DNA of 33,776 nt from Anaerolineales bacterium (GCA_015484985.1 WFUL01000173.1:1-33776); one strand, 5' to 3'; shown: positions 2,664 through 33,352, numbered from the stretch's first letter. Translations and numbers: made by a program. The notes: generated by a model not told the origin, from the sequence alone.

Positions 2664-4202
2664 TCACTCCTCCATAACCTCATCGAAGACTCGGGCCACC
2701 AAGGGCACGGCCTGTTCCACGAAAGCCTTTGGCTCGGCCACGGTCAGGGCCATGCCCCGGACGCCCGGGACCTGAGAGAAGTACTCCACCACCTCCTCGG
2801 CACCGTGCCCAATACCAAGAAAGGCAAAACGCACGCCCTGGACCGCCAGTTCTGCCACCTTCGTGAGTGCTTCCTCGGCATCGTAAAAATCCATGTCGGT
2901 GATGACCACCACGTCAGCGGCCCGAAATTCGCTCTCCTCCAACAGGTCCTGTACCTGCCACAGGCCCCGCAAGAATCGTGTCCCACCGCCCTCCCAGGCC
3001 GCCACAGCCCGGGCCATATCCTGGGGGGCTTCAATGACCTGTCTCCAGGCCGACCCTGAAAAACCCACATACGCCACGGGCCGGCCTTCCTCGTGGACAG
3101 CCTGGGCCAAAGCGTAGAACAGGGCCTTGGCGTGAATGCGCAAACCATCCATCGAACCGGACTCATCCAGGACGAAAATCACCGGCCCATCGGCCTTCCC
3201 AGGGGCCATGTCCAGGCCGAGGGTCTGGCGCTGCTGCAAGCGCCGAATTTGCTCGGCCCGGACCACGGCCGGAACCTGGGGAGCCAGGCGGACCAATTCA
3301 AAAGGAAGAAGGGCCAGCACATTGTCCGTACCCTGGACACGGCCCCGGATGCCCCGGTTGTCCAGGCCCTGCATAGCCTGATTTAGCCGGGACCGCAGGG
3401 CACGACCCAGGCGCACGATGTCCAGGGCCTGCATGTCACCCAGGACGCGTAGCAGGTTCAGGTCCCAGGTCCGCTCTTGGACCTCGGTCCCCGCCCCAGG
3501 CATAGCCTGCTCCATATCCTTTGCCGCGCCCTCGCCCTGGGCGACGCTCTGGATTTCCCACTCAATCTGCTTGCCCTGTTCTTGCATCATCTGAGCCATC
3601 GCCTGGGCCATTGCCTGGGCCATTGCCTGGGCCAGGTCTTGACCTTGTCCCTGCCCCTGTCCCTGGCCTTGCTGGCCGCCATTGTCTCCATCATCCCCAC
3701 CACCTTCACCAGGCGGCTCTTCACGGAACAGGTACTGTGCCAGGCCCTGGGCGACCCTTTCCCAGGCTGCCGCGGACCGGTACAGGCTGTAACGTGTGGA
3801 CCGAACCAGACGCATGAGGTCCCGGTACTGGTCCGGGTACTGTTCCTTCAGAAGGCCCAGGGCTTCCCGAATGCGGGAAACACCGGGACCGGAAGGGTCG
3901 CCGCCCAAAATGCCTATCATCATGGACGGCCCGGAAATCAGAGAAGTCAGGCCGCCCCCGCCCGACACCTTTTCCGAGTCATCCGGGCGGAGACGACCCT
4001 CGAAGAAGAGCCAGTACAGGTCCCCCAGGGCTCCCTCGATGGCCGGGACCTGGGAGACCTTCTCGTCCGGGACCTCGGTCCGCACCTGTTCCCGCACCCC
4101 CAGGGCGCGCAACAGCATGGCGTGCCGCGCATCCCCGGGGATGCGGACCTGGGTCTCACGGCGAATATGTGCCGGGTTCAGGTTCAGAATAACCTCGCTC
4201 AT
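2664..4202 (-). CDS. von Willebrand factor A (VWA) domain protein, ViaA/CoxE/CobT-like
   Basis: C-terminal VWA fold with MIDAS motif DESGS (VIFVLDESGSMDG ... GGGTRF ... VVVITDMDF). An LLPFELVRL...RRLQQRQ segment sits upstream, as in ViaA/CoxE-type proteins. Central low-complexity (GQ)n/(AQAM)n linker. ATGA overlap with the MoxR gene. Confidence 0.9.
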   Translation of the reverse strand: MSEVILNLNPAHIRRETQVRIPGDARHAMLLRALGVREQVRTEVPDEKVSQVPAIEGALGDLYWLFFEGRLRPDDSEKVSGGGGLTSLISGPSMMIGILGGDPSGPGVSRIREALGLLKEQYPDQYRDLMRLVRSTRYSLYRSAAAWERVAQGLAQYLFREEPPGEGGGDDGDNGGQQGQGQGQGQGQDLAQAMAQAMAQAMAQMMQEQGKQIEWEIQSVAQGEGAAKDMEQAMPGAGTEVQERTWDLNLLRVLGDMQALDIVRLGRALRSRLNQAMQGLDNRGIRGRVQGTDNVLALLPFELVRLAPQVPAVVRAEQIRRLQQRQTLGLDMAPGKADGPVIFVLDESGSMDGLRIHAKALFYALAQAVHEEGRPVAYVGFSGSAWRQVIEAPQDMARAVAAWEGGGTRFLRGLWQVQDLLEESEFRAADVVVITDMDFYDAEEALTKVAELAVQGVRFAFLGIGHGAEEVVEYFSQVPGVRGMALTVAEPKAFVEQAVPLVARVFDEVMEE

Positions 4203-5443
4203 TCCTCATCCTCCTCGGTTTCCTGGAAATACTCAGGCATGACCTCCCGCACCCAGTCAGGCACCAGGGCCTGCCATCCGGTACCGCGCAAGGCCGCTCC
4301 CAAAACGTCCTGCAAGGTCTTCATCTCTTCCTTCCATTCCTGAGTCGCGGCCACTCCCGCGGCCTGAGCGTCTTTCTCGACGTTCTTGGCGGCCTCGATG
4401 ACGGCCTGTAAAGCCATGACATTCATTTGTTCCTGGCCCTGGGCCTCATCCAGGAATTGCCGCCAGACTGCTTCCAACAGACCTCGAACCTTTGTCCGGG
4501 CACCCCCGCCCAGGGGTTGCGCAAACAAGTCAGCAATGACTGCCCGAATGTCAGCCGAGGGCGCGGGCAGGGTCAGAGGCAACAGGCCAACCCAGACATC
4601 CGCCACGGCCCCAGGGATGTTGTGGTTGTTGGCCCGCACCAGAAAAGCCACCCCAGACACCAGGAGCCGCGCCCATTGGCGCTCAAGCCGAGGCGTCAAA
4701 CGCTCCCGGATGGTCGCCAGGGCGTTTTGGACCTGCTGTTCACCCATACCCCCCAAACCCAGAAGGGCTACCACCTGGTCATCAGGCATCGCCAGCAGGT
4801 CCAGGAACCGGGCCAGGATGCCCGTGGCCTCCTGGACAGCCTGGGCCTTTTCTTCATCCGAGGGGCCGCTTTCGAACAGTTCCCAGGCCACGGGAGCCAT
4901 ATCTGCCACGTGCTGACGCACCGCACCAATGACCGGGTCGCTCTGCCCGGCCAGGGCATGCGCCCGAAAAATATCGAGTAGATGCTTTTTCTCTGGGTCG
5001 GTCTTCCACTCAATCCAGACCGCAAACCGGCTTGCCAGAGCCTCGAACCGTTGGCCGCGGGGCCACCAGTTCGCGGTGGCAACCGTGACCATATGGCGAC
5101 CCTGGGGCGGGTCCAAGACGGGCAAGAGCGCATCCAAAGCGGCCTCGTTAGCGCGGCTGATTTCATCAAAGAGCCAAGCGGAAATTTGCTGGTCGTGAGG
5201 TGTGCCAACGCGGCTGATGACCAACCGCCCGGACTGCAAGTATTCGGCCACGTCCACGGCCCCACTTACCACCTCGGGCGGCGTGTTTGGGGCGAATTCA
5301 ATCACCCCAAAGCCACCTTCACCAAAGACCTCGGCCAACACCGCCCAGGTGGTCTTGGTTTTGCCCCATCCGGGCGGACCCACAAGCAGGACATGCTCAC
5401 GGGCGGAAATGGCGATAAGCAGGGACTCAATTCGACTTAGCAT
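4199..5443 (-). CDS. MoxR-type AAA+ ATPase
   Basis: Walker A LLVGPPGWGKTK. MoxR-style Walker B WLFDEISRANEAALDALLPVLD. Sensor-1 TVATAN. LASRF Arg. Start MLSRIESLL at 5443 follows AGGAGGTGCATC. Confidence 0.9.
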   Translation of the reverse strand: MLSRIESLLIAISAREHVLLVGPPGWGKTKTTWAVLAEVFGEGGFGVIEFAPNTPPEVVSGAVDVAEYLQSGRLVISRVGTPHDQQISAWLFDEISRANEAALDALLPVLDPPQGRHMVTVATANWWPRGQRFEALASRFAVWIEWKTDPEKKHLLDIFRAHALAGQSDPVIGAVRQHVADMAPVAWELFESGPSDEEKAQAVQEATGILARFLDLLAMPDDQVVALLGLGGMGEQQVQNALATIRERLTPRLERQWARLLVSGVAFLVRANNHNIPGAVADVWVGLLPLTLPAPSADIRAVIADLFAQPLGGGARTKVRGLLEAVWRQFLDEAQGQEQMNVMALQAVIEAAKNVEKDAQAAGVAATQEWKEEMKTLQDVLGAALRGTGWQALVPDWVREVMPEYFQETEEDEE

Positions 5444-5471
5444 GATGCACCTCCTCATTTGATATTCCAAA

Positions 5472-5515: not shown

Positions 5516-6141
5516 TACTTCGAAGCAATCAGGGCCTCAATCGCGGTTTTCACAGTCTCCAGTTGCTCCAGGTCCATATCCTGGAGCAGTTGCAACACCG
5601 CGGCCACCTTCGGGTCCACTTCGGTATCGCCACCATTGGCCCGGGCCTGGAGTTCGGCCTTACGCCGCTCCAGTTCGGCCAGGGCCTGTCGGTACACCTT
5701 CTTGGCAGCGGCCAGGATATCCGCCACAGCCTCATCGGGGACCCGATGCTTCTGGGGCAGGTAACCCATCCAGCGGAGATGCCCGGGATGGACCCTCACC
5801 CAGGCATCTGCGATACGAAGTACCGCACTATCGCGCCGGATGGCGCAACCAGTGCGAAAATCTTTCACGAGACGCTTCTTGGCCTCGTAGGTGTCGGGAT
5901 GTTTCCTGCTTCCCCCGATACCGTTGGGAAAGGTGATGTCCAGCATCACCTCCCCGTCCTTTTCATAGGCCACAACCCAAATGGGCATCTCGATGATGGT
6001 TGGCTCCTCATGAGCCAGAGCGGAAGGCTTCTCTTGGCGGGCAACCCAACCAGTAAATTCGACGGCCAGGACTTCATGGTCCTGGTCTAATTCGGGCATC
6101 TCACTTCGCTCAATTCGGAAATACTCCGTTCGGCCAATCAT
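5515..6141 (-). CDS. hypothetical protein (208 aa), first gene after promoter P4
   Basis: ATG at 6141 (MIGRTEYF) follows GAGGAGTGAGAGCG. An alternative ATG lies at 6159. C-terminal coiled-coil-like region. No motif recognised. Confidence 0.75.
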   Translation of the reverse strand: MIGRTEYFRIERSEMPELDQDHEVLAVEFTGWVARQEKPSALAHEEPTIIEMPIWVVAYEKDGEVMLDITFPNGIGGSRKHPDTYEAKKRLVKDFRTGCAIRRDSAVLRIADAWVRVHPGHLRWMGYLPQKHRVPDEAVADILAAAKKVYRQALAELERRKAELQARANGGDTEVDPKVAAVLQLLQDMDLEQLETVKTAIEALIASK

Positions 6142-6177
6142 CGCTCTCACTCCTCTCATTTGGGATTTTCACCCCCT

Positions 6178-6205
6178 ATTATACAGAGACTGTCCGGCTT
6201 GTCAA
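6178..6205 (-). promoter_or_regulatory. consensus sigma70-type promoter P4
   Basis: Minus strand: AAAACCCC TTGACA (16 nt) TATAAT AGGGGGTGA. Same cassette as P1-P3. Confidence 0.8.
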
Positions 6206-6222
6206 GGGGTTTTTACGAAAAA

Positions 6223-6243
6223 GGGCCGGGAAAATCCCGGCCC
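6223..6243. terminator. bidirectional intrinsic terminator
   Basis: GGGCCGGGA-aaa-TCCCGGCCC is flanked by an A-run and a T-run on both strands. The stem sequence is the same as at 33331-33352. Confidence 0.8.
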
Positions 6244-6261
6244 TTTTTGTTAAAAAAACTA

Positions 6262-12390: not shown

Positions 12391-12805
12391 TTTTTTCACC
12401 TCCATTCTGTGGGATAGCCTTTGCCAGTCGCCGGGTCGTGCCTCGTTGCGGCCACCAGTTACGGAACACCCATCGGGCCAGGCGCACAGCCTCCGCCGGG
12501 TCCGCACCCAGTAGGGTATCCCGGGTCATATGCACTACGCGGAACAGGTTTGACCGCGTGCGACCGCGGCCGTCCACCAGGACGTTGTATCGCCAGAGTT
12601 TGGGATGAGTCTGGGGAAGTAAGAGGGCTTGGGAGGCCTCTTCCCGGCTCAGGGTCTGACCGTACTTCTGAACCGCCAGACCCAGCACCAGACCGCGCAA
12701 CATAGAAGGGGGAAGGTACAGGGCGGCAATCACGGGGATTTCCACGGTCAGGATTTCATCGCTCGTGCCTTCCAGGTCTTTTCGAATCCGCTCAGCAAGA
12801 GTCAT
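12365..12805 (-). CDS. hypothetical protein (146 aa)
   Basis: Start MTLAERIRKD follows AAGGAGGTGGAGCC. It is the first gene after P3 and the leader terminator. Confidence 0.7.
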   Translation of the reverse strand: MTLAERIRKDLEGTSDEILTVEIPVIAALYLPPSMLRGLVLGLAVQKYGQTLSREEASQALLLPQTHPKLWRYNVLVDGRGRTRSNLFRVVHMTRDTLLGADPAEAVRLARWVFRNWWPQRGTTRRLAKAIPQNGGEKNDGGPARR

Positions 12806-12830: not shown

Positions 12831-12864
12831 AAAAAGGGGAGTGAGTATTTCACACTCACTCCCC
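12831..12864 (-). terminator. promoter-proximal intrinsic terminator (attenuator or sRNA terminator) in the P3 leader
   Basis: Minus strand: GGGGAGTGAGT-gtgaaat-ACTCACTCCCC-TTTTT. Perfect 11-bp stem. It lies about 35 nt after the predicted TSS and about 25 nt before the SD. Confidence 0.75.
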
Positions 12865-12906: not shown

Positions 12907-12935
12907 ATTATACAGCACCAGGGGCGGCCTGTCAA
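12907..12935 (-). promoter_or_regulatory. consensus sigma70-type promoter P3
   Basis: AAAAACAC TTGACA (17 nt) TATAAT AACGGGTGA. Confidence 0.8.
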
Positions 12936-13728: not shown

Positions 13729-13759
13729 AAACCCCAGGCCCGCCAGGGGCCTGGGGTTT
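13729..13759 (-). terminator. hairpin terminator after the 132-aa gene
   Basis: AAACCCCAGGCC-cctggcg-GGCCTGGGGTTT, then CGTGTTTGGG. The 3' arm can alternatively pair with CACGAAACCCC at 13689-13699. Confidence 0.55.
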
Positions 13760-13763
13760 GGCT

Positions 13764-14162
13764 TTACTCGACCTGAATCAGGCCTTTACAACCCACCACG
13801 CGGCCCTGCTCATCACGTACAAGTTGACCAGGTACGTACAGGGGCGGTTTGGCCAGGGGATGATAACCGGTCTTACGCAGGGCCTCGGCAGCGACACGGC
13901 TCACAATCAGGCCGGTAGCCTGCGGGAAGGGGTCAATCAGGAAAACAGCCAGGCGGGTCCCGTCCACAAAAGTCTCATTGCCTTTGGGGTCCACCAGCAC
14001 CGGACGGCCAAGGGCTTCCCGGTACACAGGAATGCCGTCCACTTCACCGGCCTCTTCCACGGTCGCGCTTACGCGGACAGTATAGCCAGAAGGCGGAATC
14101 TCTACCTTGTCACCATCCTCGCGGATAACCACAATCTTGTGGGGCGTCAGGTTTACCAACAT
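13764..14162 (-). CDS. conserved-looking hypothetical protein (132 aa)
   Basis: MLVNLTPHKIVVI...IPPSG...VRV...GCKGL. SD GAGGAGGTGAGTC. It is transcribed together with the tRNA-like RNA. Confidence 0.8.
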   Translation of the reverse strand: MLVNLTPHKIVVIREDGDKVEIPPSGYTVRVSATVEEAGEVDGIPVYREALGRPVLVDPKGNETFVDGTRLAVFLIDPFPQATGLIVSRVAAEALRKTGYHPLAKPPLYVPGQLVRDEQGRVVGCKGLIQVE

Positions 14163-14191: not shown

Positions 14192-14356
14192 GGGCCTGGC
14201 AGGAATCGAACCTGCGACCCCGGTGGGCCACTCCGGGGCTGGGCGTCCCATCCGCTCCCCGGTCAAGGGCCGGAGCCCATCCCGACCCGGCCAGGCCGCG
14301 CACCTGGCCTTCCCGGTTTTACCCTGGGCGTCCCCAGGGGGAGCCGCCCCAGGCCC
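14192..14356 (-). ncRNA. about 165-nt structured RNA closed by a tRNA-like acceptor stem plus T-arm
   Basis: 5' GGGCCTG (14356..14350) pairs perfectly with 3' CAGGCCC (14198..14192). The 3' strand directly follows GCAGG-TTCGATT-CCTGC. The element starts 5-8 nt after the predicted P2 TSS. The interior is GC-rich with strong hairpins and an 11-nt repeat GGGACGCCCAG x2. Confidence 0.45.
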
Positions 14357-14369
14357 ATGCTCACTCCCT

Positions 14370-14397
14370 ATTATACGCAAGCCGTTCGGTTTGTCAA
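14370..14397 (-). promoter_or_regulatory. consensus sigma70-type promoter P2
   Basis: AAAACCCC TTGACA (16 nt) TATAAT AGGGAGTGA. Confidence 0.85.
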
Positions 14398-14411
14398 GGG
14401 GTTTTACAATG

Positions 14412-14435
14412 TTTTTTGTTGCTGGCAACAAAAAA
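14412..14435. repeat. AT-rich palindrome TTTTTTGTTGC-tg-GCAACAAAAAA (copy 1 of 4)
   Basis: Lies 15 nt upstream of the P2 -35 and directly after the GC terminator stem. Confidence 0.8.
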
Positions 14436-14455
14436 CCCGGGCCTTTCGGCCCGGG
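14436..14455 (-). terminator. intrinsic terminator at the end of the late/lysis operon
   Basis: Minus strand: CCCGGGCC-gaaa-GGCCCGGG followed by TTTTTTGTTG. Confidence 0.8.
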
Positions 14456-14532
14456 TCTCACTGGTGAAGCACCCCCTATCCCGCCACAAGAAGGAGGAAG
14501 AAGGCCCTACACGGTGCGGCTATGATACCACA

Positions 14533-15230: not shown

Positions 15231-16124
15231 CTATCCCTCCATCTTTTCACAGAATTCCAGCGCGGTATAGCCGCCAACAAACTTCCCGTCCACGATACGG
15301 CCCCAGGTATAGCCATCGGCCTGAACCTTGTCACCGACACCAATGACATCCCCACGATGTAGCAGGCCGATGGCATCGTAATTCAGGCCAGGTCCCTTAC
15401 GCACCCGCAGGGCCGAGGCTTTTACCTGCCACTTTTCGCCCTTTACCAGCACCAGTTCAGGCGTAGTGGACTGTAATTCGCACAGCCAGGCGATGGCCTT
15501 CCACTCCCGGCCCTGAAAGGCCCAGCGAAGCAGGGCGGCCAGGTCGCCGTTGAACCGGTTCAGGTCCACCAGGCCCGAACCCACGCCGTATTTCTTTCCG
15601 TCGCCCTGGTTGGTATACTGCCACAGCCGCCAGGTCCTGCGGGTTTCCTTCCAGGCCCTGGGAAGCACAGGCTCGGGAGCGTCAGTATAATGGGCGACCC
15701 ACAGGTCCAGGTCCAGAATGATCTTCGGCGGGTCGCCCAGGGAATCCAGGAAGGCCGGACGGCTATACAGGATGGGCGGCCGCCGGAAGCGGGTTTCCAC
15801 GGCCTGGGCAAACACCACCACCTCCGGCCATGTCACTGGCCCCTTCTCCAAATCCAGTACGGGCGGAAGTTCTCCCAAGTCGCCTGTTGAGGATACGGCC
15901 TCAAAGAACGTCTCGGCCTGGCGCATGGCCGGGACGCCAGGCTGCCAGAAATGGTATGCGCCGCGCAAGAGTTTGCCGCGGCTGCCCTGCCAGAATTCCC
16001 GGAATTTCGGGTCCTCAAAGAGGCCCTGGGTTGCCTTGATGAAAACGAACCGGGCTCCGGCAGCGCGCATGACGTGCCAGTCTATGTCGCGCTGCCACTT
16101 CGATACGTCAGTCCCAATGACCAT
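15231..16124 (-). CDS. endolysin: GH25 muramidase plus a C-terminal SH3-like wall-binding domain
   Basis: GTDVSKWQRDIDWHVMRAAGARFVFIKATQG...GAYHF (GH25 signature). C-terminus has ALRVRKGPGLNYDAIGLLHRGDVI...DGYTWGRI (SH3b-like). Confidence 0.9.
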   Translation of the reverse strand: MVIGTDVSKWQRDIDWHVMRAAGARFVFIKATQGLFEDPKFREFWQGSRGKLLRGAYHFWQPGVPAMRQAETFFEAVSSTGDLGELPPVLDLEKGPVTWPEVVVFAQAVETRFRRPPILYSRPAFLDSLGDPPKIILDLDLWVAHYTDAPEPVLPRAWKETRRTWRLWQYTNQGDGKKYGVGSGLVDLNRFNGDLAALLRWAFQGREWKAIAWLCELQSTTPELVLVKGEKWQVKASALRVRKGPGLNYDAIGLLHRGDVIGVGDKVQADGYTWGRIVDGKFVGGYTALEFCEKMEG

Positions 16125-33031: not shown

Positions 33032-33226
33032 TCACCGCTCACGCACCTCAACTTCCACTTTCCCATCCCGCCAGGTGAACACCGCCACACGGGACGGAAA
33101 CTCAACTACCCATTGCTCCTCCCCTTGCTCCACGCGAGTGGGGAATTCTCCCCAGACCCGCGCAGCCGTCATCACCGCGTTGAACATATCCTTGACAAAC
33201 TGCACTTGCGCCAATTGCTCTTTCAT
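33032..33226 (-). CDS. hypothetical 64-aa protein, monocistronic unit
   Basis: MKEQLAQVQF... SD AAGGAGTGAGGAGCC. It is bracketed by P1 and a strong terminator. Confidence 0.7.
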   Translation of the reverse strand: MKEQLAQVQFVKDMFNAVMTAARVWGEFPTRVEQGEEQWVVEFPSRVAVFTWRDGKVEVEVRER

Positions 33227-33264
33227 GGCTCCTCACTCCTTTCATTGGACTTTGTTCACTTCCT

Positions 33265-33292
33265 ATTATACGCAAGCCACCAGGTTTGTCAA
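33265..33292 (-). promoter_or_regulatory. consensus sigma70-type promoter P1
   Basis: AAAACCCC TTGACA (16 nt) TATAAT AGGAAGTGA. Confidence 0.85.
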
Positions 33293-33306
33293 GGGGTTTT
33301 CCCGAC

Positions 33307-33330
33307 TTTTTTGTTGCGAACAACAAAAAA
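33307..33330. repeat. AT-rich palindrome TTTTTTGTTG-cgaa-CAACAAAAAA (copy 4 of 4)
   Basis: Lies 15 nt upstream of the P1 -35, the same spacing as at P2. Confidence 0.8.
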
Positions 33331-33352
33331 GGGCCGGGAACATTCCCGGCCC
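33331..33352 (-). terminator. intrinsic terminator
   Basis: Minus strand: GGGCCGGGA-atgt-TCCCGGCCC followed by TTTTTTGTTG. Confidence 0.8.

Follow-up and report, generated by a model that had tools for sequence, protein, structure and literature searches.

Genomic setting of the unit

Between the lysis and replication modules of a phage genome lies a compact transcription unit that consists of a consensus sigma-70 promoter, a GC-rich RNA segment with tRNA-like ends, a single predicted protein-coding gene and an intrinsic terminator (Table 1). The window, by which we mean the whole 33,776-nt stretch of DNA analysed, has a GC content of ~61%, and all of its recognisable genes lie on the minus strand. 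As determined by searches for protein domains (Pfam, PHROGs), it encodes terminase, portal, capsid and siphovirus tail proteins, an O-like replication initiator together with a DnaC-like loader, a MoxR/VWA pair and a C5 methylase. A 34,009-bp ENA scaffold and a Logan contig both carry the sequence and are identical to the window; the 34,009-bp source scaffold is apparently circular. A second assembly of the phage has another break point and is contiguous inside the window, so that almost the whole genome is covered. Since the same sequence is found on the scaffold and on the Logan contig, we regard the window as the essentially complete ~34 kb genome of an uncultured siphovirus-like phage. These independent assemblies originate from the same sample and are identical, and therefore offer no usable polymorphisms.

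The phage is an orphan: no close relative is present in any collection searched, and its large terminase displays only 27-37% identity to the terminases of Tunturiibacter, Thermus and Meiothermus phages. According to ARAGORN the phage has no tRNA genes, so that the RNA module stands alone. SmpB is absent from the phage as well, and a Ro/Rsr gene was not found in the window.

Table 1. Features of the unit and of its upstream neighbourhood (coordinates counted from the first letter of the window; RNA positions counted from the first nucleotide of the module)
Feature	Position	Strand	Description	Basis
GH25 endolysin gene	16124..15231	minus	upstream of the promoter-RNA unit	Pfam/PHROGs
Intrinsic terminator closing the lysis cassette	14430..14455	minus	CCCGGGCC-GAAA-GGCCCGGG then TTTTTT	read directly
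Consensus sigma-70 promoter	14370..14397	minus	TTGACA 14397-14392, 16-nt spacer, TATAAT 14375-14370	score 12/12
tRNA-like RNA module	14192..14356	minus	165 nt, 76% GC	sequence and fold
Acceptor 5' strand	14350..14356	minus	GGGCCUG, RNA positions 1-7	sequence
Direct repeat, copy 1	14324..14334	minus	GGGACGCCCAG, RNA positions 23-33; inside hairpin 1 CCCUGGG-GACG-CCCAGGG
Direct repeat, copy 2	14239..14249	minus	GGGACGCCCAG, RNA positions 108-118; CGCCC pairs with GGGCG (8-12)
Hairpin C	14217..14239	minus	RNA positions 118-140, in place of the anticodon arm	predicted
T-arm	14199..14215	minus	GCAGG-UUCGAUU-CCUGC, RNA positions 142-158	sequence
Acceptor 3' strand	14192..14198	minus	CAGGCCC, RNA positions 159-165	sequence
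Ribosome-binding site of the 132-aa gene	14175-14169	minus	GAGGAGG
132-aa gene, predicted Crn4-family (Crn4b-like) ring nuclease	13764..14162	minus		profile search against the PDB
Intrinsic terminator at the unit end	13729..13759	minus	stem CCCCAGGCCC paired with GGGCCUGGGG	sequence and terminator scan

Perfect (12/12) promoters are rare in the window; only four exist, all on the minus strand, and one of them drives the module. Its TATAAT is separated from the acceptor 5' strand by 13 nt (leader agggagtgagcat). The bacterial RNase P favours a uridine at position -1, and this nucleotide is found here: transcription is predicted to start at ~14364-14361, which leaves a leader of 5-8 nt ending in U(-1) and puts the start of the terminal helix at about +6 to +8. 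The leader is thus of the RNase P-compatible size that the earlier note on this DNA had claimed. The same holds true for two statements of that note on the surroundings, namely that the unit is bracketed by terminators, which are found at 14455-14430 and 13759-13729, and that it is placed right after the lysis cassette, as confirmed by the GH25 endolysin gene upstream. The stem of the downstream terminator repeats the acceptor-stem sequence.

Three of the four perfect promoters, those at 14397, 33292 and 6205, are part of paralogous terminator-promoter-leader cassettes, which we aligned. The leaders at 33292 and 6205 comprise ~40 nt, and the 14397 cassette has the same flanks plus an extra block. 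This block is found only in the 14397 cassette of the three and contains the 165-nt module. In the alignment, the 165-nt segment is thereby shown to be a modular insertion relative to the paralogous cassettes.

Downstream, 29 nt separate the module from the start codon of the 132-aa gene, with no intervening terminator. A profile constructed from the encoded protein and its three distant homologues was searched against the PDB and matched Crn4b (9r7b, E = 3.8e-23), Crn4a (9sma, E = 7.4e-13) and Crn4 (9qs9, E = 4.8e-11). Residues T6, H8 and R116 align with the catalytic residues T13, H15 and R112 defined for Crn4 (PMC12830947) and are invariant in the family alignment. By sequence criteria, the 132-aa protein therefore belongs to the Crn4 family of ring nucleases and conserves the three catalytic residues, an assignment that the earlier note did not make. 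Crn4 degrades cA3, cA4 and cA6, and its orthologues from phages and plasmids, including the phage Crn4b, were proposed to be anti-CRISPRs (PMC12830947). An AlphaFold model of the 132-aa protein (pLDDT 48) was too poor for use.

Because the downstream gene is assigned to the Crn4 ring nucleases, the RNA and the gene probably form an anti-defence operon, composed of promoter, tRNA-like RNA, ring nuclease and terminator. This operon is short, probably an early one and driven by a consensus promoter of the host type; the Crn4-type ring nuclease is the sole protein it encodes. To our knowledge, no bacterial or phage tRNA-like element has been described in an anti-defence operon. A conserved association of RNA and Crn4 was considered and rejected: at the other phage Crn4 loci examined (Paenibacillus, Bacillus, Microcystis and Thermobifida phages, and the P0002-P0004 contigs) neither a tRNA nor a tRNA-like RNA is adjacent, and this phage is so far the only one with the pairing.

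Ends, interior and predicted fold of the 165-nt module

The first 7 nt of the module pair perfectly with its last 7 nt, and the acceptor 3' strand abuts the T-stem without a gap, resulting in a 12-bp coaxial stack. The T-arm displays all invariant tRNA positions, that is G53, U54, U55, C56, R57, A58 and C61. The central claim of the earlier note, that the two ends of the segment form a tRNA acceptor stem stacked on a canonical T-arm behind a promoter, is hence borne out by the 12/12 promoter and the perfect 7-bp helix. The acceptor pair 3:70 is G-C, the discriminator position is a U (14191, T in the DNA) and no CCA is encoded. Between the acceptor 5' strand and the T-arm, the interior spans 134 nt. 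None of the gene callers placed an ORF in the module region.

Every sequence feature listed previously is present in the DNA, the direct repeat included: two copies of the 11-mer GGGACGCCCAG are found in the window and no others, at 14334 and 14249, a distance of 85 nt. Copy 2 of the repeat provides the 3' strand of the predicted helix B (see below). The three internal hairpins that had been named all exist as well, but one of them, CCGGGG-N18-CCCCGG, competes with the more stable CCCCGG-N9-CCGGGG.

As predicted from the single sequence, the minimum free energy (MFE) fold is a four-way junction of acceptor helix, helix B, hairpin C and T-arm. In this fold, the acceptor helix is formed by positions 1-7 with 159-165, and helix B, formed by positions 8-12 with 112-116, opens into a domain of ~100 nt with three hairpins. 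Hairpin C has a 7-bp stem, built from six G-C pairs and a closing G-U pair, and a 9-nt loop (AGUGGCCCA), and thereby differs from a canonical anticodon arm. Pairing probabilities for the RNA alone amount to 0.97-1.0 for the acceptor, 0.85 for the T-arm and 0.73-0.83 for hairpin C; in the context of the transcript they are 0.84 for the acceptor and 0.87 for the T-arm. Acceptor and T-arm pairs thus predominate in the thermodynamic ensemble, also in the transcript context. A near-isoenergetic switch between the two repeat copies was rejected, as pairing with copy 1 instead costs 4.4 kcal/mol.

To trace the ends of the module, we compared them with tRNA genes. The 21-mer GGTTCGATTCCTGCCAGGCCC is present in 31 contigs of the species-level genome collection, and most matches are located inside called tRNA genes, namely tRNA-Arg(CCG/CCT), tRNA-Met/Ile(CAT) and a few others. 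Five matches are without a tRNA call in bacterial mode; one of these is truncated by the contig end, and the remaining four are archaeal loci, which we read from their sequence as intron-containing tRNAs. Several tRNAs share 28 nt with the 3' end of the RNA (GGTCGCAGG...CAGGCCC) and also start with GGGCCTG. The tRNAs identical at both the 28-nt 3' end and the 7-nt 5' end include tRNA-Arg(CCG) and tRNA-Met(CAT), and the matching tRNAs stem from Gaiellaceae, Vicinamibacterales and Thermomicrobiales. At the discriminator position the module has T, whereas all but one of the matching tRNAs examined have A (G in the exception, L012). Judged from these comparisons, the identity of the 28-nt 3' part to genuine tRNA 3' parts is not a matter of chance. 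Since both ends match tRNA genes, the ends of the module correspond to those of a real tRNA type.

The interior displays a different picture. Its similarity to the D/anticodon regions of the matching tRNAs is no better than that of shuffles (z ~0 to -2). A tRNA interrupted by one intron was also considered; for this purpose every single-segment deletion was tried, and the resulting ARAGORN calls were of low quality and inconsistent, with an interior unlike tRNA cores. These data indicate replacement of the tRNA core rather than a simple insertion or an intron. Our best reading is that three parts of a tRNA are retained in the module, the acceptor stem, the T-arm and a portion of the variable loop, with a GC-rich structured domain of ~130 nt replacing the D and anticodon arms. 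As far as sequence identity can tell, derivation of the module from a tRNA is shown.

Homologues of the RNA were not found in any of the phage, plasmid, viral, metagenome and genome collections. blastn searches with the 3-kb region and with the RNA alone against phages and plasmids were negative. Six DNA patterns run on viral contigs failed to retrieve a homologue; the 120 T-arm matches obtained there are either genuine tRNAs or fragments that lack a distal 5' partner. Thirteen matches to the 5' 17-mer were taken as chance, since none is followed by a T-arm or by CAGGCCC. Two patterns were run on metagenome contigs, of which one gave no match and the other three true tRNAs; a single pattern run on genome contigs gave 31 matches, none of them a homologue of the module. 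Using the proteins as anchors (the Crn4-like protein, the upstream 108-aa protein, the endolysin, the replication protein and a tail protein) identified distant relatives only, on contigs without such an RNA. With one sequence at hand and all homologue searches negative, we treat the structure as a single-sequence prediction and any function as putative.

Comparison with known RNA classes

Of the features that characterize a canonical tRNA, the module displays the 7-bp acceptor stem contiguous with a 5-bp T-stem and the invariant 7-nt T-loop, including the G53-C61 pair. D and anticodon arms at tRNA distances, a length of ~70-95 nt and detection by a tRNA model were not found. ARAGORN at default settings reports no tRNA or tmRNA gene, and no Rfam family matches at gathering thresholds. 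The best match within the tRNA clan of Rfam, obtained in permissive mode, is tRNA-Sec with 18 bits, and membership in this family was rejected, as the score is far below the cut-off of 47. These ARAGORN (tmRNA included) and Rfam checks, which had been suggested before and yielded no call at default or threshold settings, together with the G-C pair at 3:70 agree with the previous statement that the module is neither a normal tRNA nor a tmRNA. With a CRISPR-repeat mimic (an RNA anti-CRISPR) in mind, the module was also compared with the CRISPR-DR families of Rfam, none of which matches at E <= 10.

The bacterial Y RNAs were weighed as a further class. The topology of YrlA is permuted, in that the ends of the RNA form the Ro-binding stem and not the acceptor. 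YrlA is non-coding, combines a T-arm with an acceptor-like helix and is found in bacteria and some phages (PMC4201824). We rejected this assignment, because the module scores 14.4 bits against RF02553 (gathering threshold 69) and its ends form the acceptor helix.

Since the 1970s, phages have been known to encode tRNA look-alikes reduced to the acceptor/T-arm half, the T4 species 1 RNA (rnaC) being the example. The likeness of the module to this RNA was overlooked in the earlier note. T4 rnaC is also phage-encoded and of similar size (139 nt, compared with 165 nt here), and its terminal helix of seven positions abuts a canonical T-arm, CCGGG-UUCGAAU-CCCGG, as in the module. This terminal helix pairs CGAUUCG with CGUUUCG, two strands that are ~100 nt apart, and includes two U-U mismatches. 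The mismatches are conserved, whereas the helix of the module is free of mismatches and matches that of a real tRNA in full. Both RNAs have the same order of elements at the junction, namely terminal helix, helix to the long domain, hairpin and T-arm, which on the side of the module is predicted only. In rnaC, the four-way junction is conserved across five diverse T4-like phages, with compensatory changes in 19 of the 46 pairs; depending on the phage, pair 3 of the T-stem is G-C, U-A or A-U, and pair 3 of the terminal helix varies between A-U and G-C. The T4 rnaC family hence provides a conserved phage example of an architecture composed of terminal helix, long domain, hairpin and T-arm.

Despite this likeness of architecture, sequence homology between T4 rnaC and the module is absent beyond the T-loop. 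A covariance model (R1) built from the five diverse T4-like rnaC genes scored the module with 6.8 bits (E = 0.18) and covered only hairpin C and the T-arm. The two RNAs give the same sub-threshold match to the Rfam family tRNA-Sec (~18 bits), and rnaC is likewise without any match at gathering score. Their genomic settings differ: T4 rnaC is part of a cluster of tRNA genes and is assigned to the late class (PMC9697503), whereas the module stands alone in the leader of a putative ring-nuclease operon. In the literature, the role of T4 rnaC is listed as unknown (PMC3014915, PMC9697503). We conclude that the module is an architectural analogue of T4 rnaC and not a member of its family.

Three further systems share part of this design. 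The tRNA-like domain of tmRNA keeps acceptor and T-arm and replaces the D/anticodon region by a large structured insert, as does the module; however, the module lacks the G3-U70 pair, a plausible tag and an Rfam tmRNA match and has about half the size, and the phage is devoid of SmpB. In plant mitochondrial t-elements and mascRNA-type elements, an acceptor/T-arm structure is located within a longer transcript beside an mRNA, as observed here, and processing by RNase P and RNase Z is expected. Yet these elements are eukaryotic or organellar and ~tRNA-sized or smaller, and none is known to have an interior domain of 130 nt. Finally, AcrIIIA1, an anti-CRISPR of the type III-A kind, is reported to carry host tRNAs and tmRNA in fragmented form, and these acrIIIA1-RNAs co-purify with Cas10-Csm and bind RNase R (PMC11662646). 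They are a case of tRNA/tmRNA-like RNA tied to a phage function against type III CRISPR, which suggests a likeness to the module; the acrIIIA1-RNAs are, however, fragments derived from the host and not encoded by the phage, and AcrIIIA1 is unrelated to Crn4.

Possible roles of the RNA

A stack of 12 bp made of acceptor stem and T-arm, together with the T-loop, is the recognition element for RNase P, RNase Z and the CCA-adding enzyme, and for this reason we infer that processing releases the module from the 5' part of the operon transcript. We favour the view, with a probability of roughly 0.55, that the segment is a real, transcribed and tRNA-derived mimic RNA, which would be released by RNase P and RNase Z and accumulate; its transcription, processing, stability and action in trans are deduced from the features described above. 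RNase P would cut between U(-1) at 14357 and G1 at 14356, and a second cut would follow U 14191. The excised module may then accumulate as a stable RNA of ~165 nt, like the T4 species 1 RNA, and could act as a tRNA look-alike, possibly together with the ring nuclease. In view of its operon partner, the released RNA would most likely have a role in counter-defence.

A more specific version of this proposal, which we consider speculative and improbable in its details, is that the RNA represents the second half of a two-part anti-defence operon: a tRNA/tmRNA look-alike, freed by tRNA-processing enzymes of the host, would bind or distract immunity factors that sense the tRNA shape, while Crn4 destroys the cyclic-oligoadenylate alarm. 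Candidate targets would be the effector complex of type III CRISPR, one of its accessory nucleases, for instance RNase R, as reported for the acrIIIA1-RNAs, or a toxin directed against tRNA acceptor ends. If true, this two-part reading might point to the role of the T4 species 1 RNA.

The main functional rival to a released mimic RNA is a role in mRNA end formation. Here, the module would act only in cis as a processing or stability signal, in the manner of plant mitochondrial t-elements or tRNA punctuation. Cleavage by RNase P and RNase Z would fix where the mRNA of the ring nuclease begins and thereby its stability or timing, and the RNA cut out would do nothing by itself. The short distance of the module to the start codon, with no terminator in between, is consistent with this idea, and so is the fact that the leader otherwise resembles the paralogous leaders. 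Furthermore, t-elements, which consist of an acceptor-like helix and a T-arm-like hairpin only, are established as mRNA end-forming signals (PMC1920247). For such a purpose, however, a minihelix would suffice and the interior of ~130 nt would be superfluous, yet it coincides with the highest GC content and the strongest fold of the genome. In addition, the three other units with a consensus promoter do without such a module. We therefore regard a role exclusively in cis as unlikely, albeit worth keeping in mind.

The main null explanation is a non-functional relic, in which the 3' part is a tRNA fragment left by a decayed phage tRNA or an old attachment site and the GGGCCTG at the 5' end has arisen by chance. 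This 7-mer is common: 33 copies are found on the strand of the module, about one per kb, probably due to a frequent GGC-CTG codon pair, and taken alone it is therefore weak evidence. Partnerless tRNA 3' fragments do occur in viral contigs, where 14 of the 120 T-arm matches are without a tRNA call, and the interior retains no residual similarity to D or anticodon arms. The segment also folds no better than its own dinucleotide shuffles (z = -1.5), and its internal hairpins are roughly those expected from a sequence of 76% GC. Against a relic, the 5' strand is located exactly at the start of the transcript, and from the copy counts we estimate the chance of a GGGCCTG starting within ~15 nt of the transcription start to be ~1.5%. 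Moreover, it is the same 7-mer that starts those tRNAs which share the 3' end, the helix comprises exactly 7 bp and adjoins the T-stem gap-free, and the segment is driven by one of only four perfect promoters. The stretch 14356..14192 is the single most GC-rich one of 165 nt in the genome (76.4%) and has the lowest MFE of the 841 windows compared (-100.3 kcal/mol, with a mean of -62.5 and a standard deviation of 10.2 kcal/mol), extremes that are not expected of a decaying spacer. Altogether, we judge a mere relic to be rather improbable.

Very improbable, in our view, is an active attP core, through which a host tRNA gene would serve as integration site and be restored by the copy of its 3' end on the phage. 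This idea had been raised before and is compatible with the 28 nt identical to the 3' parts of tRNA-Arg(CCG) and tRNA-Met(CAT) from Gaiellaceae, Thermomicrobiales and others. It is contradicted by the absence of an integrase or recombinase domain from all ORFs of at least 200 aa in the nearly complete genome, by the location of all genes on one strand and by the discriminator T in place of the A that the matching tRNAs examined have, one excepted; furthermore, it leaves the 5' complement at the transcription start unexplained. Least probable of all is a miniature tmRNA with a charged tRNA-like domain and an interior encoding the tag ARPGRVGMGSGP*: ARAGORN does call a tmRNA of 166 nt with this tag and a GCG resume codon at the 80% threshold, but this call disappears at the default threshold, the tmRNA families of Rfam give no match even at E <= 10, position 3:70 is G-C and not the G-U required for alanylation, the tag is atypical in lacking the usual hydrophobic C-terminal residues, its proposed frame is buried in strong hairpins, and the module is smaller than any tmRNA known to us.

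If the module is a released, tRNA-derived RNA, as we favour, it provides a counterpart to the T4 species 1 RNA that is unrelated in sequence and originates from a very different, GC-rich phage. As the module is joined to a gene whose family copies in phages are proposed anti-CRISPRs, it supplies a concrete and testable context for such RNAs, which are missed by standard tRNA, tmRNA and Rfam screens. With the 132-aa protein, a predicted Crn4 ring nuclease whose catalytic residues are intact, the window also contributes a phage member to a family described as recently as 2025.

Regulatory cassettes of the phage genome

Sequence comparison revealed three paralogous terminator-promoter cassettes, all with the same order of elements: a GC hairpin leads into a T-run, then AAAACCCC-TTGACAA...TATAATAGG..GTGA, and finally a short leader. 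In two of the three, the palindrome TTTTTTGTTG...CAACAAAAAA is located between terminator and promoter. The phage seems to reuse one regulatory cassette that partitions its genome into units.

The leader behind one of the promoters with perfect sigma-70 consensus (12/12) contains a strong terminator-like hairpin, GGGGAGTGAGTGTGAAATACTCACTCCCC, followed by TTTTT and positioned ahead of the start codon of the next gene. This hairpin leader could be a transcription attenuator, an antitermination site or a ~70-nt small RNA. Elsewhere in this small siphovirus genome, a MoxR-like ATPase is encoded together with a VWA-domain protein.

Coordinates of regulatory elements, RNA segments and genes in the phage sequence
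Feature	Position	Strand	Remarks
MoxR-like AAA+ ATPase (423 aa) adjoining VWA-domain protein (512 aa)	2664..5470	-	phage-encoded
Paralogous terminator-promoter cassettes (n=3)	33223..33352, 14370..14462, 6138..6250	-	sequence comparison
12/12 promoter	12935..12907	-	leader of ~100 nt, then ATG of next gene at 12805
Terminator-like hairpin with TTTTT	12864..12836	-	
Ring-nuclease terminator	13729..13759	-	
Crn4-family ring nuclease gene (132 aa)	13764..14162	-	located after the tRNA-like RNA; retains the catalytic T, H and R
Tail of RNA hairpin 1	14314..14321	-	
RNA hairpin 1	14322..14339	-	
RNA acceptor-stem sequence	14347..14356	-	

The tRNA-like RNA and the ring-nuclease gene

In the terminator of the ring-nuclease gene, the stem is formed by CCCCAGGCCC paired with GGGCCTGGGG, a repeat of the acceptor-stem sequence of the upstream tRNA-like RNA. 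On the minus strand of the window, GGGCCTGGGG occurs at these two sites only, and the 5′ end of the RNA could in principle compete with formation of the terminator. Hairpin 1 of the RNA together with its tail reads CCCUGGG-GACG-CCCAGGG-UAAAACCG, an arrangement loosely similar to that of type I-E CRISPR repeats, in which the hairpin precedes the AUAAACCG handle. None of the Rfam CRISPR-DR families matched the RNA at E <= 10.

Compared with its three nearest homologues, the Crn4-family protein carries an insertion of ~15 residues at positions 83-97. Crn4 is rare on phages, being found in 11 of 28,137 phage genomes (PMC12830947).

tRNA-like loci in other genomes

The 21-nt tRNA 3′ end of the RNA is also present on four archaeal (DPANN-type) contigs (L018, L022, L028 and L029), where ARAGORN in bacterial mode called no tRNA at the match. 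Inspection by eye points to tRNA genes in which the D-arm is intact and followed by a long intron or insertion; none of these loci is related to the phage RNA.

The phage T4 species 1 RNA rnaC (L171:1409-1547) and its relatives in four T4-like loci (L172-L175) form a tRNA-like four-way junction that is conserved among them and shows clear covariation. In a comparison of the rnaC loci with Rfam, no family reached its gathering score, the best being tRNA-Sec at 17.5 bits, and the five sequences could serve as the basis for a curated family.
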